This document shows, piece after piece, positions 481 through 20,980 of a stretch of 60,308 nt of DNA. Below the pieces are notes generated by a model. That model was not told the DNA's origin. It did not search any database and worked only from the letters and a program-made list of their open reading frames with translations. How positions within the stretch are numbered: the first letter of the stretch is position 1; every line of letters begins with the position of its first letter. Location: positions 1 through 60,308 of the forward strand of contig CAZMHV010000005.1 of NCBI GenBank assembly GCA_964566225.1, in the 5' to 3' direction. The stretch comes from an uncultured Gammaproteobacteria bacterium. Its GTDB lineage: Bacteria > Patescibacteriota > Patescibacteriia > Magasanikbacterales > UBA922. The translations under genes and the position numbers were made by a program.

Positions 481-631
481 AAAGTAGATCTACCACTATA
501 CTAAAAAATTTGAGGGCAGTGGTCGATCCGCAGGCAGTGAAGATCTCCTTTCAATATCTTGTGTGCCTACGGGAAAATGGTCACGGCCAGCTCGGGGTGA
601 GTTGGTGCGTGAACGCTTGTTGGGCGCCTGG

Positions 632-871
632 TCAGCGCGTGCCGGCCTCGCCGTGGCGCGAGCGGGGGCGCAGGATCGGCTGGTGGTCGGGATTGCGGGC
701 GCGCATGCCCGTGATCATCTCGACCTCGGTGGCCGGCGGCACGTGTTCGTCCCGCGTGACATCGCCGGACGAGATGATGCCGAGGGAGTCGGCCCCGGGG
801 ACGACCTCCGTGGTGATTCGGGGCTCCTGCTCGTCCGTCTTACGCTCGTTCCTCGTTTCGTTGGGGTCCAT
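632..871 (-). CDS. G+C-rich orphan gene (island 1): 79-aa acidic, probably disordered protein of unknown function
   Basis: Inner ATG of ORF 632..973. Translation is MDPNETRNERKTDEQEPRITTEVVPGADSLGIISSGDVTRDEHVPPATEVEMITGMRARNPDHQPILRPRSRHGEAGTR. Almost every codon ends in G/C, and the other frames look like high-GC artefacts. The G+C-rich block spans about 511-946. No family recognised. Confidence 0.6.
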   Translation of the reverse strand: MDPNETRNERKTDEQEPRITTEVVPGADSLGIISSGDVTRDEHVPPATEVEMITGMRARNPDHQPILRPRSRHGEAGTR

Positions 872-930
872 GGGTTGCTTTTTTTCCCTTTTCTCTGATG
901 TCAGTTGGACCTGCCCATTCGTACCACTGT

Positions 931-986
931 GGTCGAAGGGCTCAGTATTTTTTTCACTTGTTGACAAAAGCACTGAGCCCTACAAC
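931..986 (-). promoter_or_regulatory. conserved leader hairpin, copy 1 (5' UTR of the island-1 gene)
   Basis: Plus strand reads GGTCGAAGGGCTCAGT-(25-nt A/T-rich loop)-ACTGAGCCCTACAAC. The arms are near-identical to the copy at 2264-2318. Confidence 0.5.
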
Positions 987-1008
987 GGAGTAGTACAACA
1001 AAGTGTAC

Positions 1009-1036
1009 ACTATATCATAAAAAGAGCCTTTGTCAA
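1009..1036 (-). promoter_or_regulatory. sigma70-type promoter for the island-1 gene
   Basis: On the - strand: TTGACA (comp 1031-1036), 16-nt spacer, TATAGT (comp 1009-1014). Confidence 0.55.
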
Positions 1037-1050
1037 GCTCTTTTTATGAT
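1014..1050. terminator. perfect 14-bp inverted repeat (terminator-like) downstream of the island-2 gene
   Basis: ATCATAAAAAGAGC-ctttgtcaa-GCTCTTTTTATGAT. The -35 hexamer of the island-1 promoter lies in the loop. Confidence 0.45.
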
Positions 1051-1257
1051 ATTTTTCAGTCGTCCACTGTACTTGAAAGATTCAATGACAATGGGTGACC
1101 GGCGTGCGTTCGGTCTCCTTTTCCTTTCTGGCTGCTTGGAGCAGCCGTGTGAATGCACGCGGGTGAAGTCTCTGGGCAGCGGGGTTTGGGCCACTCACTG
1201 CTGGGGACGGGTTGGGGATTGGTTACTGACAGGCGGGGTTCGCGGCGGGGCGGTGGA

Positions 1258-2169
1258 TCAGTCGGCGTGGGGCGGGTTCGGGTCCTCGGTGGGGTTGGCG
1301 TCGGTGCCGTCCACCGGGGCGTCGGCCTTGTCGTCGTTGTCCGCGGTGCCGGCGGTGGTGGCGAGCTTGGCGATCTCGTCGATGGCGGCGTCCGGGTCGA
1401 GCCCGGTCGCCGCGACGGTGATGCCGTCGTCGGTGCTGATGACGCTGCCGGCCGTGAGCGCCGCCGTGTCGGGCGTGAGGCCGTCGAGCGCGGCGCCGAC
1501 GGTGTTCTCGCCGGGGAGGGCGTCGGTGTTGGCGAGGAAGAACGTCACTTCGGGGAGCGTCGCCGCGTTTTCGAGGAAGACGCGGTAGTCCTCCTCGCTG
1601 ATCTCCGGCAGGTAGGACTCCCAGGTCGCGGGGCGGGTCACGGACGTCGAGATGCCCGTGATGCCCGTGCCGAAGGCGCGGAAGTTCCCCTGGTCGTCGT
1701 CGTCGAACTGGAGGTCCGGGCCCCGCAGACCGGTGAAGTCGATCACGGCCCGGACGTAGGAACCGTTCTGGAGTCGGGCGTACAGGTACGCCTGGTCCGT
1801 GGGGGCGCCGTTGATGGTGCCGAAGCCGCCGGTCAAGGTCCAGCGCTTGAACGGGGCACCCTTGGTCTCGGGCGGCACGTGCAGGAGGGCCACGACGGTG
1901 GCGTCGGGCACCGGGCCGTTGGCGGCGATGCCGTACCGGTCGCCGACCACCCGGAACGCCAGCTTGAGGCGGGTGGTTTCGGTGAGGGTCGAGTCGCCGT
2001 CGGCCTTGTTGGGGTCGAGGATGAAGTGCGCGCGGACCTTGCTCGTCGGGTCCGTGATCAGGATCACGTCCCGGGTGTCGCCCGGGTTGAGTCCGATCAG
2101 GTTGACGAGGTTGAGCCCGCGGGTGGGGCTCACGGCGAGGGCCACGTTCTGGGGGTTGGGGTTGCTCAT
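1258..2169 (-). CDS. G+C-rich orphan gene (island 2): 303-aa protein of unknown function with an acidic, low-complexity C-terminal tail
   Basis: Inner ATG (comp 2167-2169) of ORF 1258..2208. Translation starts MSNPNPQNVALAVSPTRGLNLVNLIGLNPGDTRDVILITDPTSKVRAHFILDP... and ends ...DNDDKADAPVDGTDANPTEDPNPPHAD. It is the only one of three overlapping long ORFs with protein-like composition and G/C-rich third positions. The 13 upstream codons have low GC3, so the start at 2208 is unlikely. Confidence 0.7.
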   Translation of the reverse strand: MSNPNPQNVALAVSPTRGLNLVNLIGLNPGDTRDVILITDPTSKVRAHFILDPNKADGDSTLTETTRLKLAFRVVGDRYGIAANGPVPDATVVALLHVPPETKGAPFKRWTLTGGFGTINGAPTDQAYLYARLQNGSYVRAVIDFTGLRGPDLQFDDDDQGNFRAFGTGITGISTSVTRPATWESYLPEISEEDYRVFLENAATLPEVTFFLANTDALPGENTVGAALDGLTPDTAALTAGSVISTDDGITVAATGLDPDAAIDEIAKLATTAGTADNDDKADAPVDGTDANPTEDPNPPHAD

Positions 2170-2263
2170 GACTAGGTTTTTCACTCCATTTTCGCATTTC
2201 CGCCGCATTCAGCTGGCGGAGATTGTCTCAACATCCCGCAGGATGGCACTCGACCGCCTAATT

Positions 2264-2318
2264 GGTCGAAGGGCTCGCTATTTTCCTTTAGATAAGAAAA
2301 ATACTGAGCCCTTCAACC
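2264..2318 (-). promoter_or_regulatory. conserved leader hairpin, copy 2 (5' UTR of the island-2 gene)
   Basis: Plus strand reads GGTCGAAGGGCTCGCT-(23-nt A/T-rich loop)-ACTGAGCCCTTCAACC. On the - strand, GGTTGAAGGGCTC pairs with GAGCCCTTCGACC with one G-U pair. Confidence 0.5.
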
Positions 2319-2384
2319 ATGTAAATAACCAATATCCAAGTTATAAAGAACAAATTGCTCTCGTAAGTGGAGAACAAACAGCGA

Positions 2385-2412
2385 AGTATATCAAAAAAAT
2401 TGAATTTGTCAA
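2385..2412 (-). promoter_or_regulatory. sigma70-type promoter for the island-2 gene
   Basis: On the - strand: TTGACA (comp 2407-2412), 16-nt spacer, TATACT (comp 2385-2390). The leader to the ATG is about 215 nt. Confidence 0.55.
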
Positions 2413-2528
2413 GAGCATTTATCCACCCAAGGGTTTTGATTATTTTTTTTGTAATTAAAAAATTCTCTTGGTACAGGCAAAAATTTTATACACAGGCTGG
2501 TTTATGCACTGTCAAAAGCACAAAGTAT

Positions 2529-2558
2529 CTTGACGAATAAGTCTTTTGGGTATATACT
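2529..2558 (+). promoter_or_regulatory. promoter of the 2605 gene (native)
   Basis: TTGACG, 18-nt spacer, TATACT; a GGAGG lies further downstream before the ATG at 2605. Confidence 0.5.
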
Positions 2559-2604
2559 ACGAACTTCGGAAAATTTTTTAGGAGGTTTTTGGTAGCATTG
2601 TTTT

Positions 2605-4167
2605 ATGGATAACTCATCCACAACACCACACCCTACACCCGAATCACAATTGACGACTGTTTTTGAGGCTCTCAAAGAATCTGTCCTCATCAAAAAGCCG
2701 GTGCTCCGGGATATTTTGGAAAAGCATGGCAACAAAAGTCTGGTAGAATATGCCAACGACTATTTTGATGTGAATATCGGGCCAGGCCTGCGCGAGCGCC
2801 AAGAAGAATTTTTTCAAACCTTTCACCCACAAGTAAGTAACTTGCTTGGTTCAGATATTGCTGACAGTGCTGTCCAGCAATTGAAAAAATATTATTTTGT
2901 TTCTACTGCGGATCACCATGGACCTCTCTGTGATCCGTTTTTTTTAAGTTCAAATTTGGTGACCGCTATTAGTGGACTGGAACGCAATGATCCTGATTTT
3001 CAAAATGTGATTGTACTTTCGTGTGCCAATGTTTCACTCAACAACAGTTCTTTTCCTCGTGGACTCTTGTTTAGTTCTTACCACGATGAAAAAGTACAAA
3101 CACACCGCTTGTCATTTTTGCCGAGTAACTCACATTCTTCTGCCGTGTATAATTTTCGTGCATATTTTTCTCAAGAAATTGATAAAGTGCGTACTACCTT
3201 GAAAGAAAAATTGAAGGCGGGACATGTGAAAACTCATCATGCAGAAAAAATTCATGACTTACTTTCTAAAATTTATCATCATGAAAATGTTTTGCAATCA
3301 CAAAATTATTCTGAGCAAGTCACCAAAACAAATTTTCATTTGTGGAGAGGGTATATCGGTGAAGATCACCAAAATCCACCAAATTTAATTTACTTAGAAC
3401 AAGAAACTTTGGTAGTACAACTTTTGCTCGATCATCACTTGGATCAGTCAACTATTTTGAACAGAATATTTTTTGAACCAACACTCGAACCCCTTATTTT
3501 GAAATATTTCAACAATATTTCTGGAGCTTTTTCACTCGAAGACAAGTGGGGAACGTATTTGTTTTGGGGAATTTCCAAAGATAAAAATTATCGTATACCG
3601 CTGTGGAAACAAGGTGAATTTTTGGTATCAGCTGATGGTGAATACAAAATTCCTTTGACACCAGAGTCAATTCGTCAGGCACTTGAAAAGAAAGAAATTT
3701 TACCAAGTATGCTGACCATTTTCTTTGTGCTCAGTTTATACTATGGACTCAAATGTCTTGGTGGATTTAGTCAGGTCAATTATTTGACCTTTATGAAAGA
3801 CGCGTATATTGAAATGATGAAAGAACTTGGCGAAGACAAAGAAGTAGCCTTGGTAGAGCCGGTACAGACCAAAGAATTTGGTGAAGATTTGACCGTGGCC
3901 TTTTTGGCAGATCCCAAAGGAGAAGTGACGATGGCGTCTGGACTTGATTTGATTTTGTACCATAACAAGGAAACCTTTGAATGCATGAAAAGTGAAGCCA
4001 AAATAATTACTCTCAATGAAGCTATTGGTCCAATGATGCCAAGTTTTTATAGAGTGGTGTATCCAGGACCAGAAAGAAAAGAAGAACTCATGGCTATTAC
4101 TTCGCAAGATATCGTAAAGCTTACCGGCCTTGATAAAAAAATTAAACCCTGTGTAACCATTGAATAA
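2605..4167 (+). CDS. conserved hypothetical protein (520 aa), backbone composition
   Basis: Long ORF with A+T-rich codon usage and its own promoter and terminator. No motif I can assign; it contains STADHHGP. Confidence 0.75.
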   Translation: MDNSSTTPHPTPESQLTTVFEALKESVLIKKPVLRDILEKHGNKSLVEYANDYFDVNIGPGLRERQEEFFQTFHPQVSNLLGSDIADSAVQQLKKYYFVSTADHHGPLCDPFFLSSNLVTAISGLERNDPDFQNVIVLSCANVSLNNSSFPRGLLFSSYHDEKVQTHRLSFLPSNSHSSAVYNFRAYFSQEIDKVRTTLKEKLKAGHVKTHHAEKIHDLLSKIYHHENVLQSQNYSEQVTKTNFHLWRGYIGEDHQNPPNLIYLEQETLVVQLLLDHHLDQSTILNRIFFEPTLEPLILKYFNNISGAFSLEDKWGTYLFWGISKDKNYRIPLWKQGEFLVSADGEYKIPLTPESIRQALEKKEILPSMLTIFFVLSLYYGLKCLGGFSQVNYLTFMKDAYIEMMKELGEDKEVALVEPVQTKEFGEDLTVAFLADPKGEVTMASGLDLILYHNKETFECMKSEAKIITLNEAIGPMMPSFYRVVYPGPERKEELMAITSQDIVKLTGLDKKIKPCVTIE

Positions 4168-4169
4168 AT

Positions 4170-4200
4170 AAAAAAATCACCTGTAAAAAGGTGATTTTTT
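4170..4200. terminator. bidirectional intrinsic terminator
   Basis: aaaaaaATCACCTgtaaaaAGGTGATtttttt, flanked by A- and T-runs. It serves the 2605 gene and the convergent island-3 gene. Confidence 0.7.
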
Positions 4201-4360
4201 AAAAGTTGAATGCAGCCTCGGGGGTGTCCATGTCGTGTGGAGATTGGTGGATCCCCCGAGGTTTGGTGGTACGCGTCTCCTTTTTTATACGAAGGGTCAC
4301 CACCTGACCCGTTGGTTATTGCGAACCGAGGTGGTTCGCGTGGAAGCGCTGGCCGGACGG

Positions 4361-4510
4361 CTAGCGCTGCTGCGGGTTGCCCGTGTTTGGGAGCTGGTTG
4401 CGCCAGTTCTGGCGCTCCTTGGCCTTCTCACCGGTGCGGTGCTTGTGCCCGAGACCCCGGGCGCGACCGTGGTCGTCGCCCACCTTCTTGAAATTCTGAC
4501 CCTTGGCCAT
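4361..4510 (-). CDS. G+C-rich orphan gene (island 3): 49-aa highly basic small protein
   Basis: Below the ORF-track size cutoff. Reverse translation gives MAKGQNFKKVGDDHGRARGLGHKHRTGEKAKERQNWRNQLPNTGNPQQR, with stop TAG at comp(4361-4363). Third positions are G/C-rich and a GGAG lies 9 nt upstream. The listed ORFs 4210..4491, 4235..4591 and 4297..4584 are R/A/P-rich artefact frames. Confidence 0.55.
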   Translation of the reverse strand: MAKGQNFKKVGDDHGRARGLGHKHRTGEKAKERQNWRNQLPNTGNPQQR

Positions 4511-4555
4511 TGTCGAGTGCTCCGGCTGCGTAGTTTTTGGTGCAGCTGGTGTAAA

Positions 4556-4584
4556 AGTTTACACGAACAGGTAAAATTTGTCAA
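4556..4584 (-). promoter_or_regulatory. sigma70-type promoter for the island-3 gene
   Basis: On the - strand: TTGACA (comp 4579-4584), 17-nt spacer, TAAACT (comp 4556-4561). Confidence 0.5.
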
Positions 4585-4644
4585 TACATAGCATTGTTTT
4601 TCTCTCTTTTTGGGAGTATACTAAGAAAAGAATAAATATATTTT

Positions 4645-5412
4645 ATGAAAACGAAACAAACTTCTTGGGGTAATGTAGCCAGTTGGTATCACGAAATGCT
4701 CGAAAGCGGTGAAGGAACCTTTCAAAAAGACGTTATCTTGCCCAACCTTTTGCGGCTCATGGATATACAAAAAGGACAAAAAATTCTTGACCTCGCCTGT
4801 GGGACAGGTTTTTTTTCTCGTGAATTTTTGGCTGTTGGTGCCTCGGTTATTGGGGTTGATGTTGGGGCTGAACTTTTGGAAATTGCGAAAAAAAATTCAG
4901 ACAAAAAAATTCAGTATATTGAATCTTCGGCCGATGATTTGCATTTTGTCCTCAAGGAATCCGTTGATCACATTGTGATTGTGCTGGCACTCCAAAATAT
5001 TGAAAATGTGGCAGGTGTCCTCAAAGAATGTCGTCGAGTGTTGAAGCCAAGTGGAAAATTATTTGTGGTACTCAATCATCCCACATTTCGTGTTCCCAAA
5101 TCATCTGACTGGGGATGGGATGAAGAAAACATGATTCAATACCGACGTGTTGATGCATACTTATCTGAGAAACAAGTAAAAATTGAAATGCATCCCGGTG
5201 AAAATAAAAATATTAAAACGATTTCGTTTCATAGACCTCTGCAATATTATTTTAAAATGATGAATAAAAATAATTTGTGTGTGACGCGTATGGAAGAGTG
5301 GATCAGCAATCGTGTGGGACCCAAAGGGAGAAAGTTTGCAGCGAGTGAAAAAGCACGCAAAGAAATTCCACTATTTATGGTTTTGGAAATGACACCTGCA
5401 CCTAAAAAATAA
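4645..5412 (+). CDS. class I SAM-dependent methyltransferase
   Basis: Motif I ILDLACGTGFFS, then GVDVG and LKPSGKLFVV (post-I and motif III-like). Confidence 0.8.
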   Translation: MKTKQTSWGNVASWYHEMLESGEGTFQKDVILPNLLRLMDIQKGQKILDLACGTGFFSREFLAVGASVIGVDVGAELLEIAKKNSDKKIQYIESSADDLHFVLKESVDHIVIVLALQNIENVAGVLKECRRVLKPSGKLFVVLNHPTFRVPKSSDWGWDEENMIQYRRVDAYLSEKQVKIEMHPGENKNIKTISFHRPLQYYFKMMNKNNLCVTRMEEWISNRVGPKGRKFAASEKARKEIPLFMVLEMTPAPKK

Positions 5413-5462: not shown

Positions 5463-6965
5463 ATGGATCAAATGACCAATTTGCCTCCAACACCTTCACC
5501 GGTACAAGAGGTCGCACCCAAGGGACATATTTTTATAAAAGTACTTCTTGTTGTTTTGGTACTGGGTGGTCTTGGTGGTGGTGGAGCCTTTGCCTATTTT
5601 AAATACTTTGCAGAAGTTCCAGAAATGCAAATTTATAAAGCGTTTACCAATACAGAAGAAATAAAAACCTATTCATTTGATTTAAATATCAGTGCCAAAG
5701 GAAAGATTTTGAGTCGTGCGGAGAGATCTCTCAATGAAAGTTTGGCCGGCCTTGGTGGAACTGTGACTGTCGGTGGCGCCGAAGGCGAACAAAAAGCCGA
5801 TACGCAAGTATTTGTTGGAATAAAAGGGGATATTGATAAAACAACTGCGAAACAAGTAAAAAGTCAACTTACTTTTACTGTCGGTGGCAAACAAGAGGAC
5901 AAAGAAGTGGGGCCCTTGGTTTTGAATTATTTCAATGATAGTAACGTGGTAGCATTTCGTGTGCCTAAAATTCCTCCAATGAAGGATATGGATTTTAGTG
6001 ATTTGGATAATCAATGGGTTTCCTATGACTATTCTAAGTTCAAAGGAAAACTTGATGCCTTGGTAGAAGAACAAAAAGAAAAGGCCAATAAAAACTTTAG
6101 TGACGAAGATGAAAAAAGAATTTTGGCATTGGCCAAAAAAATAGCCATGGAAAAACCTCCGATTACTGTGACACAAAAACTTAAAAAAGAAATGATTGGT
6201 GGTGTTGAAACTCAGCCGTATGCTTTTATTGTGAGTAAGGAAAATGTTATCTACTTGGTAGAAACATTGGCTAAAGATGAAAAAGCAGGAATACAAGAAA
6301 AAGATATTACGGAATTAAAAGAAATGCTTGCCGAAGTAAAAAAACTTGATGGAACTGTATGGGTTGGTGGAAAAGGAACATCGCTCTTGCCATATAAATT
6401 GAGTCTGGCTGGAATATTTGAAGATGCCAAAACAAAAGAAGATGTGAATGTTACCTTTACGATTGCGTTTACGAATGTGAATAAGCCGGTAGTTATTGAG
6501 TCACCCAAAAATGCTATGAGTTTTGAAGATGCTTTCAATATAGTGATGACGAAGATGGCGGAAGTGTCGATGAAGAATTTGGAGCAAGATGAGTTAGGGG
6601 GAACGGGCGCAGATTCAATGGGTGTAAAATTAGAAGCTCATAATTATGTTTTTGTAACAAATGTGAGAGAAAATAACATAGACATGAATCTTTCGACTCT
6701 TGATTCTGATGGAAAAGTTGTAGGTCACATGACAACAGTACCCAACGATGGATTTGTTTCTGACAAAGACAGTGATGGGCTTGATTATACTGTGGAAAGA
6801 CTCTTTGGGACAGACTCAAACAAGCCAGATTCAGATGGTGATGGTTTAAATGATGGTGATGAGGTGAATAAATATAAAACACATCCGGCATATAAAGATA
6901 CTGACGAAGATGGATATGATGATGGAATGGAAATAAAAACAGGACATGATCCACTCAAAAAATAA
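5463..6965 (+). CDS. membrane-anchored surface protein with C-terminal thrombospondin type-3-like Ca-binding repeats
   Basis: Start taken at the ATG for MDQMTN (the track start at 5421 is TTG). The N-terminal TM segment is IFIKVLLVVLVLGGLGGGGAFAYF. The C-terminus is DSDGDGLNDGDEVNKYKTHPAYKDTDEDGYDDGMEIKTGHDP. Confidence 0.7.
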   Translation: MDQMTNLPPTPSPVQEVAPKGHIFIKVLLVVLVLGGLGGGGAFAYFKYFAEVPEMQIYKAFTNTEEIKTYSFDLNISAKGKILSRAERSLNESLAGLGGTVTVGGAEGEQKADTQVFVGIKGDIDKTTAKQVKSQLTFTVGGKQEDKEVGPLVLNYFNDSNVVAFRVPKIPPMKDMDFSDLDNQWVSYDYSKFKGKLDALVEEQKEKANKNFSDEDEKRILALAKKIAMEKPPITVTQKLKKEMIGGVETQPYAFIVSKENVIYLVETLAKDEKAGIQEKDITELKEMLAEVKKLDGTVWVGGKGTSLLPYKLSLAGIFEDAKTKEDVNVTFTIAFTNVNKPVVIESPKNAMSFEDAFNIVMTKMAEVSMKNLEQDELGGTGADSMGVKLEAHNYVFVTNVRENNIDMNLSTLDSDGKVVGHMTTVPNDGFVSDKDSDGLDYTVERLFGTDSNKPDSDGDGLNDGDEVNKYKTHPAYKDTDEDGYDDGMEIKTGHDPLKK

Positions 6966-6973: not shown

Positions 6974-7004
6974 AAAAAAAGGCGCTCCACACGGGGCGTC
7001 TTTT
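6974..7004. terminator. bidirectional terminator hairpin
   Basis: aaaaaaAGGCGCtccacacggGGCGTCTttt. On the - strand a 7-T run follows the stem, so it terminates the island-4 gene. Confidence 0.55.
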
Positions 7005-7103
7005 GTAATGGTTGTTGTGAAGGGCACCGGGATCCTCGCACGCTGCGCCGCTGGCCGATTGGCCGCTCTCGCATTGTGCGAAGGATTCCCGATGCCGTGG
7101 GGG

Positions 7104-7418
7104 TCATTCGAGGAGTCCGAGGAGCAGCGCGGCTGCCCCCATGACTTCGTTCGAGTTGAACCCTTTGATCGTGCAGACGTTCTGGCTGGAAGAGTTCTGC
7201 ACGTCGCTGCCGCAGACGGTCCCGATTTGGGCGCCGCGACCGAGCATGCCAGCCTCGAAGACCTTTCGGCCGTCGACGTAGCCGACGATGGTCCGGCGAT
7301 TCGGTCCGTAGACTTTGTTGCCGTCCACGTAACCGCGGATGTCTCCGCCGCCTCCCGGTCCGTAGACCGTGTTTCCATCGACATACCCGACAGTACTTCC
7401 AGTTCTAACTGGATTCAT
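7104..7418 (-). CDS. G+C-rich orphan gene (island 4): 104-aa repeat protein, reminiscent of 4-fold beta-flower proteins
   Basis: MNPVRTGSTVGYVDGNTVYGPGGGGDIRGYVDGNKVYGPNRRTIVGYVDGRKVFEAG...GAAALLLGLLE. It has three GYVDGxxV(Y/F) repeats. RBS GAGGAG lies 8 nt upstream. The family assignment is from memory of the repeat pattern only. Confidence 0.65.
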   Translation of the reverse strand: MNPVRTGSTVGYVDGNTVYGPGGGGDIRGYVDGNKVYGPNRRTIVGYVDGRKVFEAGMLGRGAQIGTVCGSDVQNSSSQNVCTIKGFNSNEVMGAAALLLGLLE

Positions 7419-7469
7419 TCTGGGTCACTCCTCGTAGGGAAAGTGGTGGAATAGCTCAGGAAACAGTAT

Positions 7470-7498
7470 ATAATACAACAGATTGTGGTCTTTGTCAA
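7470..7498 (-). promoter_or_regulatory. sigma70-type promoter for the island-4 gene
   Basis: On the - strand: TTGACA (comp 7493-7498), 17-nt spacer, TATTAT (comp 7470-7475). Confidence 0.55.
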
Positions 7499-9630: not shown

Positions 9631-10989
9631 ATGAAATCTATTAATCCCGCAACCGAAGAAATCATCGCCGAATATAGCGAACTCACCGAAGAAGAACTCG
9701 ATGCCAAAATTGATGTGGCACACCGCGCGTTTGAAGCCTGGAAACTCACCAGCTTTGATTTTCGTCGCGAACGCATGCTCGAACTCGCGCGATTGTTTCG
9801 AAGCAATAAAAATGAATTGGCACAAATTGCTACCCTTGAAATGGGCAAGCCTATCACACAGTCTCTTGCTGAAGTAGAAAAGTGTGCGTGGGTCTGTGAA
9901 TACTACGCCGATAATGCAAAAACAATTTTGGCGCCAGAAGTGGTTGCAAGTAATGCGAGTGAAAGTTATGTTCGCTTTGATCCGATTGGTGTGGTGCTGG
10001 CTGTGATGCCATGGAATTTTCCGTATTGGCAGGCCATGCGTTTTATTGCGCCGGCTGCTATGGCTGGAAACGTTGGAGTGTTGAAACACGCATCAAACGT
10101 GCAAGGCTGTGGCATGGCCATGGAAAAATTATTTTTGAAAGCAGATTTTCCAGAAGGAATTTTTCAAAATCTTGCCATTGGTGCGAGTAAAGTTGAGCAT
10201 GTGATTGCAGATCCACGAGTGGTCGCGGTTACACTTACGGGAAGTGAATCTGCTGGGCGCAAAGTTGCGGCGCAAGCAGGAGAGCATTTAAAAAAAGTGG
10301 TGCTTGAACTTGGTGGCAGTGATCCTTCGATAATTTTGAAAGATGCAGATTTGGATTTGGTGATGCAAGTCACGCCCATGGCACGACTCCAGAATGCAGG
10401 ACAAAGTTGTGTGGCCGCAAAACGATTTATTGTACACGAGGACATTGCCGAAGAATTTATAACACGATTTAAAAATGAATTTGAAAAACTTGTGGTAGGG
10501 GATCCAATGAGTGAAGCAACGCAGATGGGCCCACTAGTAAATGCAACTGGGGTGCAAGAAATTGAAAGACAAGTTGCAGAGTCTGTGGCGCTCGGGGCCG
10601 AGGTCGTGACGGGTGGAAAAAAAGTTGGTGACAAAGGATTTTATTTTGCGCCAACTATTTTGCGAAATGTAAAAAAGGGAATGCCCGCGTACAGTGAAGA
10701 ATTTTTTGGACCAGTGGCTTCGGTGATTGTGGTTCAAGACGAAGCCGAAGCACTGCATATTGCCAATGATGTTTCATTTGGCCTCGGCAGTTCCATTTAT
10801 ACTCGTGATACTGATCATGCCAAAGAACTAGCAAGTAAAATTGATGCGGGGCAAGTGTTTATCAATGGTATGGTTCTTTCAGATCCACGACTTCCATTTG
10901 GTGGCACCAAAAATTCTGGATGTGGCCGCGAGCTCTCGCACTATGGCATCAAAGAATTTGTAAATATTAAAACCGTGTGGGTGAAATAG
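9631..10989 (+). CDS. NAD(P)-dependent aldehyde / succinate-semialdehyde dehydrogenase family protein
   Basis: ALDH signatures ELGGSDP (catalytic Glu) and GQSCVAAKRF (catalytic Cys); 452 aa. Confidence 0.85.
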   Translation: MKSINPATEEIIAEYSELTEEELDAKIDVAHRAFEAWKLTSFDFRRERMLELARLFRSNKNELAQIATLEMGKPITQSLAEVEKCAWVCEYYADNAKTILAPEVVASNASESYVRFDPIGVVLAVMPWNFPYWQAMRFIAPAAMAGNVGVLKHASNVQGCGMAMEKLFLKADFPEGIFQNLAIGASKVEHVIADPRVVAVTLTGSESAGRKVAAQAGEHLKKVVLELGGSDPSIILKDADLDLVMQVTPMARLQNAGQSCVAAKRFIVHEDIAEEFITRFKNEFEKLVVGDPMSEATQMGPLVNATGVQEIERQVAESVALGAEVVTGGKKVGDKGFYFAPTILRNVKKGMPAYSEEFFGPVASVIVVQDEAEALHIANDVSFGLGSSIYTRDTDHAKELASKIDAGQVFINGMVLSDPRLPFGGTKNSGCGRELSHYGIKEFVNIKTVWVK

Positions 10990-11005
10990 GAATACAAAGG
11001 AAAAA

Positions 11006-11083
11006 CAAAAAACCCGCCTTCTCCCTCCTTTTCTCAAGAAAAAATTTTTCTCGAAAAAGGGATTGCGAAGGCGGGTTTTGTTG
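11006..11083. terminator. long hairpin / bidirectional terminator between the ALDH gene and island 5
   Basis: AACCCGCCTTC (11011-11021) pairs with GAAGGCGGGTT (11067-11077), followed by TTTTGTT. The 45-nt loop is A/T-rich. Confidence 0.5.
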
Positions 11084-11098
11084 TGGCGGGAGGTTGTC

Positions 11099-11800
11099 TC
11101 ACTCGTCGTTGAAGAGTGGGGCAAACCAGGGGAAGAGGGGCGCGAACCAGGACGAGGGTGTGTGCTGGTGACGGGCCCTGTGGAGAGATGCAACGACGAA
11201 ACCAGTGTTCTTCGAGACCTCCCAGTGGGAAGGATCGCGGTCGTCCTGTTCAAGCCGGATGAAGTTTCCTGCCTCTCGGAGGCCGAGTTCTTTTTGGGCT
11301 TGTTGCAGGCTTTTGACCCAGTTGGGGAACGGGTCGTCGATCCCTTGCCGGAAGGATTCTCCGTAGATGAACCGTTTGGCTTCTGGGGAGATTCCGAACT
11401 GAAGCATCGCCGGTGCCAGGATCTGGTGTCTGACACGGTTGTTGAAGGAGTCCCTGAGAATGTCCAGGTCGAGGCGGCCGTCGAGAAGTCGAGGTTGACT
11501 CTCCGGACGGTATTTTTCCGACTGATTCACCCGGAGTGCCGCCAGGTTTTCGGGCTCGTTGACTTCTTCGTCTTTGAGCACTTCGTGGAGCCACGCGCTC
11601 ATCTGCGCGTTGCTCCAAAGCAACTTCGGGCGGTGCAGGGCTTGAGCCGTCTTGAGGAACTCTTTCAAGTACCTGACGATTTCCGGCAAATGTTGATTTT
11701 CCTCGACGAAGGCCAGGATCTTGGCCATGTTGAGGGTCGCCATGACATCGGCGACCGTATACGCCATGGTCGCGCTGTTCGCCGTATCGCTGATCTTCAT
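11099..11800 (-). CDS. G+C-rich orphan gene (island 5): 233-aa protein of unknown function with a tandem C-terminal WFAPLF repeat
   Basis: MKISDTANSATMAYTVADVMATLNMAKILAFVEENQHLPEIVRYLKEF...SSWFAPLFPWFAPLFNDE. RBS GAGGAG lies 7 nt upstream. The alternative ORFs 11063..11908(+) and 11250..11840(-) are R/P/G-rich. Confidence 0.7.
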   Translation of the reverse strand: MKISDTANSATMAYTVADVMATLNMAKILAFVEENQHLPEIVRYLKEFLKTAQALHRPKLLWSNAQMSAWLHEVLKDEEVNEPENLAALRVNQSEKYRPESQPRLLDGRLDLDILRDSFNNRVRHQILAPAMLQFGISPEAKRFIYGESFRQGIDDPFPNWVKSLQQAQKELGLREAGNFIRLEQDDRDPSHWEVSKNTGFVVASLHRARHQHTPSSWFAPLFPWFAPLFNDE

Positions 11801-11842
11801 CGGGTTTCTCCTCGTGCGTGGGTCCGAATTTGGACCTCAATA

Positions 11843-11871
11843 ACTATAGCCAGTCTAAGCGTATTTGTCAA
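11843..11871 (-). promoter_or_regulatory. sigma70-type promoter for the island-5 gene
   Basis: On the - strand: TTGACA (comp 11866-11871), 17-nt spacer, TATAGT (comp 11843-11848). It overlaps a divergent + strand TTGTCA..TATACT promoter for the DUF1653 gene. Confidence 0.55.
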
Positions 11872-11916
11872 CACTCTGTGGTATGGTATACTTTTTGTAT
11901 TCTTGTAAGAGATACT

Positions 11917-16270: not shown

Positions 16271-16273
16271 TAT

Positions 16274-16816
16274 ATGGCAGCAGAAGAAATATTGGACATT
16301 ATCAATGAACATGATGAAGTGATTGGTCGGGGAACGAGGGCCGAGATACATGCTCAAGGGTTGCTTCATAGAATTGTTGATATTTGGTTTTATAATAAAA
16401 ATGGTCAGGTTTTGTTTCAGAAAAGAAGTTTTAAAAAAGATAATTCACCAGGTCTTTTGGGATTTTCTGTAGGAGGACATGTAGAAGCAGGCTCAAATCT
16501 GATTGATACGGTGATTCGGGAGATAAAAGAAGAATCAGGACTTGATGTAACTGCAGCAGATATAATTTTTCTAGCAAAGGTACATTGCCTTAGCACAAAA
16601 GAAAATCAATTAAAAAATATTTTTGCATATCATTTTACTGGAAAACCAGAAGATTTAACTTTTGACCCAAATGAAGTAGAGTATTTTGAGTGGTGGAATA
16701 TTGAAGACATTTTGAATCTTTCACCAGAACAAAAAACAAAATTTGCAGCAAATATGTTTGAGGAGGGTGTTTTAGATACTTTAAAAAAAGTTTTGGAACT
16801 CAGTAAGCAGGTATAA
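16274..16816 (+). CDS. NUDIX hydrolase
   Basis: Nudix box GGHVEAGSNLIDTVIREIKEESGL. Confidence 0.85.
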   Translation: MAAEEILDIINEHDEVIGRGTRAEIHAQGLLHRIVDIWFYNKNGQVLFQKRSFKKDNSPGLLGFSVGGHVEAGSNLIDTVIREIKEESGLDVTAADIIFLAKVHCLSTKENQLKNIFAYHFTGKPEDLTFDPNEVEYFEWWNIEDILNLSPEQKTKFAANMFEEGVLDTLKKVLELSKQV

Positions 16817-16891
16817 ATAGAAGATTAGTCTTTTAAAAGAGTGATCGATTTCAAGAAAAATTTTTACTTCAAAAGTTAAAATAGTTTAGTA

Positions 16892-16920
16892 TTGACAAAA
16901 GCTTGATTTTTTGTTAAGGT
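16892..16920 (+). promoter_or_regulatory. sigma70-type promoter for the island-6 gene
   Basis: TTGACA (16892-16897), 17-nt spacer, TAAGGT (16915-16920). The leader contains a TCTCAT..ATGAGA hairpin, and AGGAG lies 8 nt before the ATG. Confidence 0.5.
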
Positions 16921-17032
16921 CAACCGTTCAACAGTCTCATATAAAAAAATTTTTTTTACATGAGATTCGTTTTATCTTAGCCATGGTGGTCTAAAATGAA
17001 GCGAATAACACCCTCAACCAGGAGAAATCCAG

Positions 17033-18367
17033 ATGGCTCGTTCTTTCATGATTGCGTTCATGTGCTTTGTCCCCTCGATGTTTTGCTTCTTCGGATGTGA
17101 GACTCGGGTCACGACCAAGAATTTTCCCGACATGGCACGGACGATCGTCGAATTCGATGCGTCGTCGCAGACCGACATCGGAAACGACACCGGGAATCAT
17201 GTTTCGGGCCAGGTTTTCTTGCCGGCAGATGTGTCGGTGACGATCTCTGATGTGAAGGACTTCGGAGTCTCGGACATGATGTTTTCTGGTAGACGCGATG
17301 GTTTGCCAGATTCGACTCAAGTCGCTGACGTGTCTCCACTCCCACCCGAAGTGGACGCTTTCGTGAGCGAGGCTGATCTCGCTTACGAGCAAGACGCGAC
17401 TGTCGATGCAATCATCGACGCTACGCAGGAGGTTCTCGCCGACGTGGGAGTGGTCACTGACCAGTTTGTGAATCCCCCTCCGGCACAGCCAACCTGCGAG
17501 GTTGTCGAAGTCGAACAGGGCGGCCGTTGTTTCAATGGCTGTGATGACGACCTCGATGGTCTGCTTGATACGGACGATCCTTCGTGTGCGGGTAGCTGTG
17601 ACAAGCTCGACCCGTTTTGTGAAGGAGATCTCGTGTGCAACGACCTCACGGAAATGTGTGAGGAACCGATTCCGCTCGAGGCGCTCTATCCTGATTCGGG
17701 AGCGTGTGACCTCATGGAAGAGGTTCACCCCTGTCACAACCTCTGTGTTGGCGTTGTCAACATCGGGGAAACGTGTTTTTGGTCGGGTGGAGCCGTTGTT
17801 GCTGTCAAAGATGTCGATGCTGACCGCGTTCAAGATGAACCGGTTGTCCTCGACTTGCCAGTTGACAACTGCACGGCCTGGCCCAACGCCAATCAGGTTG
17901 ACACTGACGGAAATGGTGTCGGAGACTGGTGTGAACTTTCTGCTGAAGAACAGCAGGACACGGATCACGACCTCGTTCCTGATGGCGTTGACAACTGCCC
18001 TGGGTTCTACAACCCGTGGCAGTCTGACCAAGACCTCAATGGCATCGCTGACGAATGCGAGCTCATGCCGGAAGAGGGGTGTGAGGACGGTCTTCTCGAG
18101 ACAGAAGATCGATGGAACCCGAACCTGGTTTGGTGTGAGCACCGAGCCTTGGACAGTCTCTGGCATTTTTGGATTCACGTCTGTGGATTCGATCGAACCG
18201 GTGCGTGTGGGGCGTGTGATCCACCTCCACAAGAGTTTGAAACTTCGGTCGTCTACGAAGGATGGATGTGTACGGTCTATCCTGATCAAGACGGGGATGG
18301 CATCCCTGAGTCAGGAGAGGGCATTTTCGCCCAGTACCTCGACGAACCGTTCGTCGATCAACAGTAA
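17033..18367 (+). CDS. G+C-richer orphan gene (island 6): 444-aa acidic, Cys-rich putative lipoprotein with thrombospondin type-3 repeats
   Basis: Signal/lipobox MARSFMIAFMCFVPSMFCFFGC. TSP3-like NANQVDTDGNGVGDWCE and DTDHDLVPDGVDNCPGFYNPWQSDQDLNGIADECE. The antisense ORFs 16991..18289(-) and 17502..18512(+) are R/S/V-rich and were rejected. Confidence 0.75.
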   Translation: MARSFMIAFMCFVPSMFCFFGCETRVTTKNFPDMARTIVEFDASSQTDIGNDTGNHVSGQVFLPADVSVTISDVKDFGVSDMMFSGRRDGLPDSTQVADVSPLPPEVDAFVSEADLAYEQDATVDAIIDATQEVLADVGVVTDQFVNPPPAQPTCEVVEVEQGGRCFNGCDDDLDGLLDTDDPSCAGSCDKLDPFCEGDLVCNDLTEMCEEPIPLEALYPDSGACDLMEEVHPCHNLCVGVVNIGETCFWSGGAVVAVKDVDADRVQDEPVVLDLPVDNCTAWPNANQVDTDGNGVGDWCELSAEEQQDTDHDLVPDGVDNCPGFYNPWQSDQDLNGIADECELMPEEGCEDGLLETEDRWNPNLVWCEHRALDSLWHFWIHVCGFDRTGACGACDPPPQEFETSVVYEGWMCTVYPDQDGDGIPESGEGIFAQYLDEPFVDQQ

Positions 18368-18454
18368 CGTTCGCTTTTGGAGGAGCGAACGTACTTGGCG
18401 TTCGAACAACGAACGCCACATGAAAAAGATCTTCTCTCTTGAGGAGATTTTTTT
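18368..18454 (+). terminator. three tandem hairpins after the island-6 gene; the last is a T-run terminator
   Basis: CGTTCGCT..AGCGAACG (18368-18391); GGCGTTCG..CGAACGCC (18397-18417); ATCTTCTCtcttGAGGAGATtttttt (18429-18454). The first two share the same 8-mer, so alternative pairing is possible. Confidence 0.55.
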
Positions 18455-18529
18455 ATGGAAAGATTTTACTAGACAGAAAGTTGGGGAAAGGTGTATAATT
18501 TATAACAATTAATATTATAGAAAGATTGT

Positions 18530-19156
18530 ATGAAAAAGATATTTATAGTTGTGTTGCTTTTCGGTTTTGTTTTTCCATCACTTGTGTTGGCCGCGCCACT
18601 CACTGGTGCAAACTCAAATGTAGGAGTGTATTATAATAGTGAGTCAGCATTAGACGATACAAATGATGCCAATGATGCCGATGAGGCAGGGGATGTAAGT
18701 TGGGTAAATGCGGGTGGAAACTATTCATATATTGGTTATACAAATTCAAAGTTTAATAAAGTTTATCTTGATATAGAAACTGAATCAGCGCTGGCGGCAG
18801 GAATGGATTATGATTTGAACATTGAATATTACAATGGAAATTCTTGGGTCTTACTCACTACTATTGCAGGAAATCAAAATCCATTTCGTTCAGCAGGAGT
18901 GAAAAATTTTAGCTTTACTCCACCAGCTGACTGGGCGGAGACAACTCCAGAGATGAGTGAGAGTATTCCAAGTGCTTATTTTATTCGTATTGGCGATGGT
19001 TCTCAGGGTGCATCTTTAAATCAGATTTCTATTTTTCGAGTTGATGTTGGAGGTGAGTCAGTTCCTGAATTTAATACATATCTGTACATACTCTGTTTGG
19101 CTCTTGGTGGATGGTTTCTTACTTTGCAAGTAAAAAAATATCAACTCCACTCATAA
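18530..19156 (+). CDS. secreted protein with a C-terminal PEF-motif / TM / basic tail (possible sorting signal)
   Basis: Signal peptide MKKIFIVVLLFGFVFPSLVLA. The C-terminus is GGESVPEFNTYLYILCLALGGWFLTLQVKKYQLHS. Confidence 0.65.
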   Translation: MKKIFIVVLLFGFVFPSLVLAAPLTGANSNVGVYYNSESALDDTNDANDADEAGDVSWVNAGGNYSYIGYTNSKFNKVYLDIETESALAAGMDYDLNIEYYNGNSWVLLTTIAGNQNPFRSAGVKNFSFTPPADWAETTPEMSESIPSAYFIRIGDGSQGASLNQISIFRVDVGGESVPEFNTYLYILCLALGGWFLTLQVKKYQLHS

Positions 19157-19168
19157 AGATATATAAAG

Positions 19169-19196
19169 ACCGCCCTCCACAAAAGGGTGGTTTTGT
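19169..19196 (+). terminator. intrinsic terminator
   Basis: ACCGCCCtccacaaaaGGGTGGTtttgtt: a 7-bp stem with one G-U pair. Confidence 0.5.
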
Positions 19197-19213
19197 TATA
19201 GAATAGATGAACT

Positions 19214-20488
19214 ATGGATCAACCCTCTCTTTTTGCTAGCCCAAATATTCTTTCAGTCACCGAATTTCTCGGGGGGCTTAATTTGTTGCTCTCAGAAATG
19301 GGAATAGTAAAAGTTAAGGGTGAAATTTGTAATATTAGTTTACGCAGTAGTTATGGATTTTTTTCCATCAAAGAGTCTACTCCAGGCGCCAAGTCCGATG
19401 CCATGGTCGGATGCTTTCTTGGATGGAAACACATGAGTCGTGTGCAGCACCTCTTGCAAAATGGAATGGAAGTGGTGATTTCGGGTACGGCAAATATTTA
19501 TGTGCCCAATGGGAGTTTTCGTATTGATGTTGCTAATATTGAACCTGTTGGTGAAGGAGCCCTCCAAAAAGCGTTTGAAGCGTTGAAGTTGAAGTTGTCT
19601 GAAAAAGGATATTTTGATGTTACTCGTAAACGCGCAATTCCAGAGTTTGTGAAACACGTTGGGATGATTACATCCATGAGTGGTGCCGCGGTGATTGATT
19701 TTCAAAAAAATTTGGAGCCGCAGGGATTGCAGATTGAATACCTGGATGTGCGTGTAGAGGGAGACTCGGCCGAAGATTCCATTGTGCGAGCGATTAAAAA
19801 ATTTAATGAAATGCGACCACAGATTGACGCGCTCGTGCTTATTCGTGGTGGAGGAAGTTACGAAAGTTTGAAAGCCTTCAATAGTGAAGCAGTCGCTGAT
19901 GCTATTTATTTTTCGCGCATTCCTGTGATTACGGGTATTGGTCATGAACGCGATGATACGATTGCAGATTTTGTGGCTGATGTGCGTTGCTCTACGCCAA
20001 CAGCCGTGGCAGCGTTTTTGCAAACCAAACGCGAAGGTTTATTTTCTGTGCTGAGTAATTTAGAAAATGAATTGGTGTATTCATTTGACGGAATCTTTGA
20101 TGAACAAAAGTTAATTCTCGCTCACGAAACACAAAAGTTGATACGAAATTTTGAAATGGTGTTACAGCGTGATGAAACAGTGGTGCAGAATTTGGAATAT
20201 GGTTTACAAAGTGGGTTTCAATATATTTTTAATAATTTTCATTCGCTTGAGGAACGATTTTTTCGAGCTGGTTATGAATTTGAGTCGAACTTGCATTTGT
20301 CACTCCAAAAAGTAGAAAGTTTTGCAACTCAATTGCAGGTGCTCAACCCCGAGGCAATTTTGGAGCGGGGATATAGTATTGCATATAATGAAAAGGGGAA
20401 AGTGGTGAAGAGTGTGAAAGGTGTCGCTGCTGGGGATATTTTGAATTTGCGAGTATCAGATGGAACCATAAAAACAAAAGCAGCCTAA
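19214..20488 (+). CDS. xseA: exodeoxyribonuclease VII large subunit
   Basis: N-terminal OB-fold region, then LIRGGGSYESLKAFNSEAVADAIYFSRIPVITGIGHERDDTIADFVAD, typical of XseA; 424 aa. Confidence 0.85.
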   Translation: MDQPSLFASPNILSVTEFLGGLNLLLSEMGIVKVKGEICNISLRSSYGFFSIKESTPGAKSDAMVGCFLGWKHMSRVQHLLQNGMEVVISGTANIYVPNGSFRIDVANIEPVGEGALQKAFEALKLKLSEKGYFDVTRKRAIPEFVKHVGMITSMSGAAVIDFQKNLEPQGLQIEYLDVRVEGDSAEDSIVRAIKKFNEMRPQIDALVLIRGGGSYESLKAFNSEAVADAIYFSRIPVITGIGHERDDTIADFVADVRCSTPTAVAAFLQTKREGLFSVLSNLENELVYSFDGIFDEQKLILAHETQKLIRNFEMVLQRDETVVQNLEYGLQSGFQYIFNNFHSLEERFFRAGYEFESNLHLSLQKVESFATQLQVLNPEAILERGYSIAYNEKGKVVKSVKGVAAGDILNLRVSDGTIKTKAA

Positions 20489-20584
20489 TGTTTAAGCTGC
20501 TTTGGAGTCCATCCGAGTCTTCCTGCCTCGGGTGCTCCCTCCTTTCGTTTGATTGTGTTGCTTGTCCAGTCTGTGGTTCGTGCC

Positions 20585-20869
20585 CTAGTTGTCCAGCATG
20601 AGTTGCGTGACCACCGGGGCGAACTGACCGAGGAGCCACCCCGTGAGGCCGCCGTCCTTCCGCATCAGCGTCAGCTCGATGAGGGAGTGGATGAGACTCC
20701 TCATCATCGGATCTTCGGGGACGGGGAAGGGGCGAACCACGATGCCCGCGATGTGTCCGTCGTCGAACTCGGTCATGGCATCGTGCTTGTCCTCTCTCCT
20801 CGAGAAGTTGAACGAGCCGTCGTCCATCTTCACGATCCACCTCGGCAACGCCTCCATGAATTCTGTCAT
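20585..20869 (-). CDS. G+C-richer orphan gene (island 7): 94-aa protein of unknown function
   Basis: Inner ATG (comp 20867-20869) with GGAGGA 5 nt upstream. Translation is MTEFMEALPRWIVKMDDGSFNFSRREDKHDAMTEFDDGHIAGIVVRPFPVPEDPMMRSLIHSLIELTLMRKDGGLTGWLLGQFAPVVTQLMLDN. On the - strand a hairpin (AGCAGC..GCTGCT plus T-run) follows, overlapping the xseA stop. Confidence 0.6.
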   Translation of the reverse strand: MTEFMEALPRWIVKMDDGSFNFSRREDKHDAMTEFDDGHIAGIVVRPFPVPEDPMMRSLIHSLIELTLMRKDGGLTGWLLGQFAPVVTQLMLDN

Positions 20870-20951
20870 CGCATTCCTCCACGGCACAAGTTTGGTGTGC
20901 CTCTCTTGTTTGCCCTCAAGCAAGCCAAAGAGACATATCAAATGATAAGCG

Positions 20952-20980
20952 AATTTAGCACAGTTTATTCTTTTTGTCAA
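20952..20980 (-). promoter_or_regulatory. sigma70-type promoter for the island-7 gene
   Basis: On the - strand: TTGACA (comp 20975-20980), 17-nt spacer, TAAATT (comp 20952-20957). Confidence 0.5.

Follow-up and report, generated by a model that had tools for sequence, protein, structure and literature searches.

Seven G+C-rich single-gene transcription units at exchangeable positions of an A+T-rich, probably patescibacterial genome

Three kinds of described system come close to the locus presented here, a series of seven G+C-rich single-gene islands within a 60,308-nt stretch of DNA from an uncultured bacterium (GenBank contig CAZMHV010000005.1, assembly GCA_964566225.1), which is called the window throughout. 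Closest in behaviour are flexible genomic islets of the replacement (or additive) type, which are exchanged by homologous recombination through flanking core genes, occupy fixed slots between conserved genes, hold variable or no content, need no mobility genes and have their slots clustered in a variable region. Closest in form are integron cassettes, exchangeable units of a single open reading frame (ORF) that sit at a defined position and carry a hairpin-forming element at the 3′ end; they are promoterless, arranged in tandem and served by a common Pc promoter. The third kind comprises ORFans of atypical G+C content acquired by horizontal gene transfer (HGT). Classical atypical-GC islands are usually A+T-rich and silenced by H-NS-type proteins. 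In Candidate Phyla Radiation (CPR), or patescibacterial, genomes, many transferred genes and islands have been reported, and most transfers were inferred to have taken place between Patescibacteria, as far as the available part of the survey shows (PMC12455944). In TM7x, little host-derived HGT was reported (PMC7427843). Single-gene G+C-rich cassettes with promoter and terminator frames are not described in that part of the patescibacterial survey, where G+C content serves as a general amelioration argument (PMC12455944), and our literature search found no description of such a pattern.

The phenomenon is real and unusual. It is akin to flexible or HGT-derived gene islets and has one unexplained property, a persistent G+C-richness in a genome of 40% G+C. 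Unlike flexible islets, the islands (numbered 1 to 7 along the window) consist of single small genes, each equipped with a perfect consensus promoter and a terminator of its own and mostly antisense to the neighbouring genes. Moreover, the payload is 15 to 30 percentage points more G+C-rich than the genome, and the frame of promoter and 3′ untranslated region (3′UTR) is partly conserved while the payload changes. In contrast to integron cassettes, the islands are scattered over 21 kb and have promoters of their own, and neither IntI nor attI nor a recognisable attC was found among the scanned ORFs of the window and by a repeat search. Orphan proteins, atypical composition, patchy distribution and, in island 5, amelioration are shared with atypical-GC ORFans. 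However, the polarity is reversed, G+C-rich genes lying in an A+T-rich genome, and these genes carry the strongest promoters and are not silenced. Furthermore, no donor was found, and the composition of the island-2 family persists through saturated synonymous divergence.

Sliding-window composition resolves seven sharp G+C-rich blocks, all of them in the first 21 kb of the window (Table 1). The 100-nt flanks of the islands have G+C contents of 0.26 to 0.42 and the remaining window 0.396. Across the island-free part from 21 to 60 kb, windows of 400 nt average 0.401 (standard deviation 0.04); their maximum of 0.517 belongs to a cluster of three tRNA genes, and apart from this cluster no block comparable to the islands was found in these 40 kb. 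Every block contains one ORF with a strong three-base periodicity by codon. The G+C fraction at third codon positions (GC3) reaches 0.97 in the islands, compared with 0.36 to 0.51 at their second positions (GC2) and with a GC3 of 0.34 in 14 backbone genes. The 3′UTRs of the islands are likewise G+C-rich (0.55 to 0.65). In islands 1, 2, 6 and 7 the initial 30 to 75 nt of the leader are A+T-rich, so the G+C boundary does not always coincide with the transcription start. Base composition and codon usage thus deviate as they do in horizontally acquired genomic islands. An initial annotation of the window, made from the sequence alone, had described abrupt single-gene blocks in an A+T-rich backbone, which these data confirm, and the counts of 47, 33 and 25 G+C that it gave for individual lines of 60 nt proved exact on recount. 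It had also placed six of the seven islands antisense between co-directional plus-strand genes. This arrangement applies to islands 3, 4, 5 and 7, but not to islands 1 and 2, which lie between the msrB/SelR gene on the minus strand and a plus-strand gene, nor to island 6, which is itself on the plus strand.

Each block is a complete autonomous single-gene transcription unit comprising a promoter, an ORF led by a Shine-Dalgarno sequence, a 3′UTR and a terminator. Matches to the promoter pattern TTGACA-N16-18-TAnnnT were found at 12 separate places in the 60 kb, where 2.8 would be expected; not one of 100 shuffled sequences contained as many. Seven of these perfect sites are found directly upstream of the seven islands and in the correct orientation; the other five belong to a DUF2207 gene, csoR, the tRNA operon and rpsF, with one being intragenic. 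Given about 62 genes in the window, the probability that all seven island genes carry a consensus promoter by chance is below 1e-6. In a generic promoter scan, the island promoters were the top-scoring ones between 1 and 20 kb. The TTGACA-type promoter that the initial annotation had seen outside each block therefore passed the shuffle test, and its picture of single genes of foreign composition driven by native-type consensus promoters is supported. At the 3′ end, a hairpin followed by a U-tract is present in all seven units, with z between −3.8 and −9.4 in six and a weak value in island 4. The terminator of island 3 is positioned to serve also the convergent plus-strand gene ending at 4167. 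The terminator of island 2 and the promoter of island 1 overlap: the loop of the terminator hairpin holds the −35 box of the promoter, and the −10 box follows the U-tract.

Table 1. Transcription units of the seven islands and copies of the conserved leader hairpin (window coordinates; G+C of the blocks as delimited in the initial annotation; CDS, coding sequence; C3, fraction of C at third codon positions; aa, amino acids).
Feature	Extent	Strand	Promoter	CDS (product)	G+C	GC3	Leader	3′UTR and terminator
Island 1 unit	450..1036	−	1009-1036	632-871 (79 aa, orphan)	0.633	0.91	hairpin 924-986	G+C-rich 3′UTR 511-631; terminator 450-480, z −5.5
Island 2 unit	1012..2412	−	2385-2412	1258-2169 (303 aa)	0.681	0.97 (C3 0.69)	~210 nt, structured; hairpin 2262-2318	3′UTR 1051-1257; terminator 1012-1050, z −9.4
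Island 3 unit	4171..4584	−	4556-4584	4361-4510 (49-aa basic peptide)	0.616	0.86		3′UTR 4201-4360 with AAGGAGA and 9-bp G+C hairpin; terminator 4171-4200
Island 4 unit	6974..7498	−	7470-7498	7104-7418 (104 aa)	0.610	0.72		3′UTR; weak terminator ~6974-7006, z −1.55
Island 5 unit	11003..11871	−	11843-11871	11099-11800 (233 aa, orphan)	0.576	0.74	36 nt with hairpin and GAGGAG	long terminator hairpin 11003-11083, z −7.8
Island 6 unit	16892..18457	+	16892-16920	17033-18367 (444 aa)	0.546	0.59	~106 nt, initially A+T-rich	3′UTR hairpin; terminator 18419-18457, z −3.95
Island 7 unit (xseA/xseB slot)	20466..20980	−	20952-20980	20585-20869 (94 aa, orphan)	0.583	0.88		AAGGAGG ~20545 to terminator ~20466-20505 abutting xseA; z −3.8
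Leader hairpin, copy 1	924..986	−					G+C stem GGGCTCAGT/ACTGAGCCC over inner A+T stem CTTTTC/GAAAAG	
Leader hairpin, copy 2 (island 2 leader)	2262..2318	−						

The sequence recurs in other assembled contigs. Positions 1 to 20989 of the window are 100% identical to Logan contig SRR16481186_523701 (L081; related contigs are designated in this way by L and a number), and a 3.2-kb contig from run SRR16481187 is identical over the NUDIX gene, island 6 and the next gene, both junctions of island 6 included. Diverged related islands are present in runs SRR22388073, SRR21524769, SRR22388219, SRR22388125, SRR24319170 and SRR24750906/7, which have distant accession numbers. The islands are not an artefact, since the Logan contig agrees with them exactly, island 6 recurs unchanged in another run and diverged orthologues are present in further samples.

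Comparison with related contigs revealed empty, orthologous or swapped content at fixed slots, which identifies the islands as exchangeable accessory cassettes in insertion hot spots. Island 5 has orthologues at the same site, beside the DUF1653/HhH-GPD genes, in L088 (88% amino acid identity) and L089 (73%), and its promoter, leader and 3′UTR are nearly invariant in both. In the more distant L090 it is absent. Here, 46 nt separate the stop codon of the aldehyde dehydrogenase gene from the DUF1653 start, and the 922 bp at window positions 10989-11910 are replaced by 41 bp. As the promoter and the terminator are missing together with the coding sequence, the frame belongs to the indel at island 5. 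The 46-nt empty site itself (L090 1068-1114) is G+C-rich (TCCGGGCGGGGGTGATCC...) without evident similarity to island 5 and might be the scar of another, lost cassette.

At the slot between xseA and xseB, which harbours island 7 in the window, the alignment of the window with L090 extends through the upstream region of xseB and the −35 box, breaks off close to the −10 box and is restored from AAGGAGG through the approximately 90-nt 3′UTR and the shared terminator. Between these stretches, L090 has a leader that cannot be aligned and a G+C-rich ORF of 114 aa that bears no relation to island 7. Part of a slot frame can persist while the payload changes, and the idea of cassettes in a frame put forward in the initial annotation was borne out at this site. 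L095 has an empty slot without a TTGACA promoter, xseA being followed by xseB after 147 nt. The initial annotation had named such empty sites as a check, and they were found in L095 and, at the aldehyde dehydrogenase/DUF1653 site, in L090. In two more distantly related contigs, L092 (12866-14541) and L099 (5668-7396), the xseA/xseB slot holds A+T-rich minus-strand genes for an extracytoplasmic function (ECF) sigma factor and a DUF5667 protein, which is taken to be the anti-sigma partner. The presence of this A+T-rich pair shows that the slot is a general insertion hot spot and not specific for G+C-rich payloads. A further slot, upstream of a methyltransferase gene, is occupied by island 3 in the window, by a 63-aa payload in L096 and by a homologue of island 2 in L091, all of them behind a promoter of the TTGACAAAT... 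type. Thus, the presence/absence polymorphism typical of genomic islands was observed (island 5 in L090, the xseA/xseB slot in L095), and so was non-homologous content in the same slot with homology resuming in the flanks, as in flexible islets. A scan of ORFs covering most of the 60-kb window detected neither an integrase, a transposase or a reverse transcriptase nor a tRNA-adjacent site. Likewise, a search of the island borders gave no convincing flanking direct or inverted repeats and no repeat family common to the seven islands. As regards integrase, transposase, tRNA-adjacent sites and direct repeats, the ORF scan and the repeat search agree with the initial annotation.

The payload proteins have few recognisable relatives. 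The island 6 protein matches the Pfam family TSP_3 (E 9e-10; thrombospondin type-3 repeats) and has a signal peptide with a cysteine (FFGC, lipobox-like by eye), so that the predicted product resembles a surface lipoprotein carrying Ca-binding repeats. The island 4 protein contains GYVDGNxVYGP repeats and, judged by a match to Pfam Bflower_2 below the gathering cut-off (E 7.7e-8, 32.6 bits, cut-off 38), weakly resembles a beta-flower protein. The proteins of islands 1, 2, 3, 5 and 7 had no match in Pfam, PHROG or PADLOC, and the search of PHROGs and PADLOC with all island proteins gave no match. Public protein searches covered approximately 15 billion proteins (5.8 billion 90% clusters and 1.8 billion 50% representatives). 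For the island 2 protein, there was no match among the 5.8 billion clustered proteins and only three distant homologues among the 1.8 billion representatives; the core of the protein is conserved. The island 5 protein had only two homologues. All homologues that could be placed (L088, L089, L091, L096, L097/98) are themselves G+C-rich islands behind a TTGACA promoter on A+T-rich CPR contigs. For islands 2 and 5, the two families searched, no homologue in G+C-rich, non-CPR DNA was found, and hence the host- or prey-derived payloads considered in the initial annotation are not borne out; nor was there an identifiable donor lineage as expected for a horizontally acquired island. No relatives emerged when IMG/VR was scanned with island 5, island 6 and a profile of the island-2 family, and the same is true for tblastn searches of island 2 against phages and island 6 against plasmids. 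AlphaFold2 models of islands 2 and 5 (pLDDT, the predicted local distance difference test score, 56 and 46) were too poor for use, and a fold search of the PDB with the island 2 model gave no match at E ≤0.001.

The public-assembly gene caller assigned a wrong strand or frame in five of the seven islands (1, 2, 3, 4 and 7; contig L081). The true proteins are therefore missing from protein collections, and similar cassettes elsewhere are probably under-detected owing to mis-called genes. Two similar single-gene islands were noticed in other contigs. The one in L013, a Patescibacteria metagenome-assembled genome, encodes a 166-aa repeat protein (16690-17440, GC3 0.86), and the one in L085, a metagenome contig taken as a distant relative, a RidA/L-PSP-like protein (5850-6460, GC3 0.79). 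Both have a near-consensus promoter and a terminator, and islands of this kind may extend beyond this clade. A stretch of high G+C in L092, considered as a further island, proved to be a tRNA operon, and a mildly G+C-rich gene in L043, which is without a consensus promoter, was not counted as the same phenomenon.

Two islands have diverged relatives in which the course of the base composition can be followed. In island 5, a dN/dS of about 0.3 indicates purifying selection. When changes in the lineages of the window and L088 were polarised with L089 as the outgroup, 35 substitutions from G or C to A or T (S>W) stood against 7 in the reverse direction (W>S), compared with 10 S>W and 16 W>S in the flanking backbone genes. 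A ratio of about 5:1 is expected for neutral decay to the backbone equilibrium; island 5 is thus ameliorating. The initial annotation had deduced several donors from two compositional classes. This assumption is not needed, since island 5, a member of the intermediate class, is decaying to A+T, and differences in age or constraint may underlie the classes.

The island-2 family behaves differently. Its four members all adjoin a homologue of the gene at 2605-4167 of the window, and their pairwise identities (47, 37, 36, 40, 40 and 51%) are paralleled by those of this neighbour (40, 35, 35, 34, 41 and 71%). A structured leader is common to the members in the window, L096 and L097. The synonymous divergence (dS) of the backbone between the window and L091 is about 1.9, as calculated from SelR and the 2605-4167 neighbour. 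Nevertheless, GC3 is 0.97, 0.89, 0.95 and 0.95 in the four members, with a C3 of 0.61 to 0.69. Where the encoded amino acid is conserved, 32 to 67% of codons have a different third base, and 11 to 25 of the 12 to 30 third-base differences per pair are C<->G exchanges. Saturated third-position differences that are mostly C<->G mean that the synonymous sites have turned over and yet stayed G/C. By a two-state neutral-decay estimate over a backbone dS of about 1.9, GC3 would be expected near 0.6 or lower. There are two possibilities: either the family diverged in an unsampled G+C-rich reservoir and recently entered each genome at the same place, or A/T was purged in situ. The former requires a donor clade that is absent from the public proteins searched, the latter an unknown selective or biased process. 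Hence, the term unameliorated used in the initial annotation is wrong for this family, whereas its argument that neither simple recent HGT nor a chimeric contig is adequate gains support.

Beside the promoters, a leader hairpin of approximately 60 nt links several of the units. It sits between promoter and coding sequence in islands 1 and 2 and in homologues of the latter, and further copies are located at L097 85-146, L098 178-239 and L096 ~1095-1140, the last being a compensatory version (GGTTTACT/AGTAAACC). Double-sided changes affect 8 of 26 predicted pairs, and only this hairpin, not the whole blocks, shows covariation. Rfam searches, run both at the gathering threshold and with E allowed up to 1, returned only three tRNAs and one chance miRNA-like match, and an IMG/VR scan with the hairpin pattern gave chance matches alone, none of them with the extended motif. 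Having no Rfam match, the leader hairpin is a candidate new cis-regulatory element. At the opposite end, inspection by eye showed AAGGAG(A/G), followed by a G+C hairpin, close to the 3′ margin in islands 1, 2, 3, 5 and 7 (positions ~535-545, ~1100-1115, ~4270-4280, ~11020-11030 and ~20540-20550, respectively) and in the payloads of L090, L091 and L096. In the pair of L091 and island 2, the motif is followed by a seven-codon mini-ORF, whose start is ATG in L091 and ACG in the window. This 3′ element is not attC-like.

Taken together, we interpret the islands as genuine exchangeable accessory expression cassettes in a flexible part of a CPR chromosome, drawn from a G+C-rich pool and partly maintained in their composition, and assign a probability of roughly 55% to this interpretation. 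The payloads would come from a gene pool outside the mutational regime of the backbone that circulates among related CPR genomes. Recombination in the conserved flanks or frames, probably following DNA uptake by natural transformation, would be the main route by which they are gained, lost and swapped, and a recombinase encoded nearby would not be needed. With such strong promoters, the payloads are predicted to be highly expressed accessory proteins. In at least some cassettes, selection acting on DNA or RNA, or else a steady resupply, would actively keep up the G+C-richness; some cassettes would decay to A+T and others would be held G+C-rich. Going further, it is conceivable, and we propose it only tentatively, that the clade keeps a class of accessory genes whose extreme G+C content, with GC3 of at least 0.9, codons ending in C and G+C-rich UTRs, is actively maintained and which occupy reusable promoter/leader/terminator slots open to payload exchange, and that the composition itself is functional. 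It might protect the transcripts or the DNA from a nuclease or silencing directed at A/U, or suit a partner cell rich in G+C.

Several observations weigh against the cassette interpretation. Few relatives are available, most of them short contigs, and the co-divergence of the island-2 family was deduced from four sequences and partial neighbour genes. No recombinase, competence gene or repeat explaining insertion was found in the window, the mechanism of exchange being inferred only. Islands 1, 3, 4 and 7 are without orthologues, and their coding status follows solely from codon periodicity and Shine-Dalgarno sequences. Mis-calling of five islands may cause the searches to under-report CPR homologues; G+C-rich donors should not be missed. 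Between the window and L089, dS of island 5 is 0.50 and thus lower than in its flanks (0.87 to 1.24), which could reflect a later transfer between lineages or synonymous constraint. Finally, both maintained and decaying G+C contents were encountered, and one process may not explain all seven islands.

Among the alternatives, plain HGT survives best and is still unlikely. It would imply a recent capture from a G+C-rich cellular donor, for instance the host of the epibiont, by illegitimate recombination, the gene having acquired a native promoter or landed behind one, and not yet having ameliorated. Several properties are consistent with such an origin: G+C is high at each of the three codon positions and in the UTRs, the S>W excess in island 5 is that of neutral decay, island 5 is missing from the more distant L090, and wide gene exchange has been reported for CPR bacteria in the available part of the survey (PMC12455944). 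However, no homologue of islands 2 or 5 in a G+C-rich context was found among the public proteins searched, nor is there a phage, plasmid or IMG/VR relative for islands 2, 5 and 6. The island-2 family, with its shared leader, occupies a conserved position in four diverged CPR genomes, and its synonymous sites are saturated yet 89 to 97% G/C, far from the neutral estimate. Moreover, the island 5 indel includes promoter and terminator, and perfect consensus promoters are present on seven of seven islands.

A native origin, in which G+C was imposed in situ by selection on transcript or DNA, is less probable still. Possible forms are an RNase-resistant or stable mRNA, escape from A+T-directed silencing or nucleases, and extreme codon bias of highly expressed genes. 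The stable GC3, high C3 and predominance of C<->G changes in the diverged island-2 family would fit, as would the strong consensus promoter on each island and the occurrence of the families, as far as known, in CPR islands alone. On the other hand, island 5 is losing G+C, and the rpsF/ssb/rpsR region, which also has a consensus promoter, shows an ordinary GC3 of 0.30 to 0.35; the tRNA cluster alone is G+C-rich. Presence/absence and replacement of payloads mark accessory, mobile units. In addition, no trinucleotide was avoided in the island transcripts beyond a depletion related to stop codons, contrary to what the idea of RNase resistance would suggest.

A dedicated site-specific cassette system resembling integrons, with sites such as AAGGAG(A/G) plus hairpin and a recombinase elsewhere in the genome, appears slightly more doubtful again. 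It would explain the different payloads in the same slot and the homology between the window and L090 that ends close to the −10 box and starts again at AAGGAGG. The 3′ motif with its G+C hairpin at five islands and three related payloads also suits such a system, as do the promoter and hairpin modules common to the unrelated islands 1 and 2. Yet neither an integrase nor a recombinase was present in the scanned ORFs of the 60-kb window, the seven islands share no repeat or attC-like consensus, and the inclusion of promoter and terminator in the island 5 indel means that the slot was not pre-existing there. Furthermore, AAGGAG is also a plain Shine-Dalgarno sequence and could be the remnant of a downstream gene start, and enrichment of the motif was judged by eye.

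G+C-rich intergenic regions in A+T-rich genomes are classically structured non-coding RNAs. The promoters and terminators of the blocks and the conserved leader hairpin would suit this explanation, but it is contradicted for the island bodies by strong codon periodicity, intact Shine-Dalgarno-led ORFs, Pfam matches for islands 4 (sub-threshold) and 6, the dN/dS of 0.3 in island 5, the conserved core of the island-2 protein and the lack of an Rfam match up to E 1; it is very improbable overall, and possible for the leader hairpin alone. An assembly chimera, a contamination or an engineered or in-silico construct, as suggested by the abrupt G+C boundaries and the seemingly designed layout and, except for contamination, listed in the initial annotation, has a negligible probability: the window and L081 possibly derive from the same raw data, but SRR16481187 reproduces island 6 and both junctions exactly, and homologous islands in runs of distant accession number show natural divergence in the patterns of evolving genes.

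The backbone is probably a Patescibacteria/CPR genome, in agreement with the symbiont considered in the initial annotation. For homologues of the CapA/GH114 gene, the source labels read Magasanikbacteria, Parcubacteria or Patescibacteria. Among GTDB representatives, the best match to the aldehyde dehydrogenase gene (9631-10989) has 63% identity, and none is a close relative. Other content of the window deserves mention. At least ten paralogous genes for T4SS_pilin-domain proteins form an array on the minus strand (43352-52559) that is broken by a solute-binding protein gene; the array also speaks for a CPR genome. A minus-strand gene at 39984-41087 encodes a 366-aa protein with an N-terminal PAS domain and sigma-70 regions 2 and 4, an unusual sensor-sigma fusion. 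A copper/heavy-metal cluster on the same strand (28215-33571), conserved in the relatives L090 and L092, comprises a P-type ATPase with HMA domains, a csoR-type repressor and an HMA-DsbD_2-cupredoxin protein. The anaerobic NrdD is encoded in the window as well.

CPR bacteria, or Patescibacteria, represent a large and mostly uncultured bacterial diversity with tiny genomes and an episymbiotic life, and little is understood of the ways in which they acquire and express new functions. The locus described here is a dense set of promoter-equipped orphan genes that are swapped at fixed slots; ordinary recent transfer from any sampled donor cannot account for their composition. With strands or frames mis-called in five of seven islands, protein databases and HGT surveys largely lack such genes. 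If their G+C content is maintained, an unknown selective or mutational force acts on specific genes; if it is resupplied, an unsampled reservoir of G+C-rich genes is linked to these symbionts. Should the composition itself prove functional, the cassettes would represent an undescribed way to organise and exchange genes without a linked recombinase.

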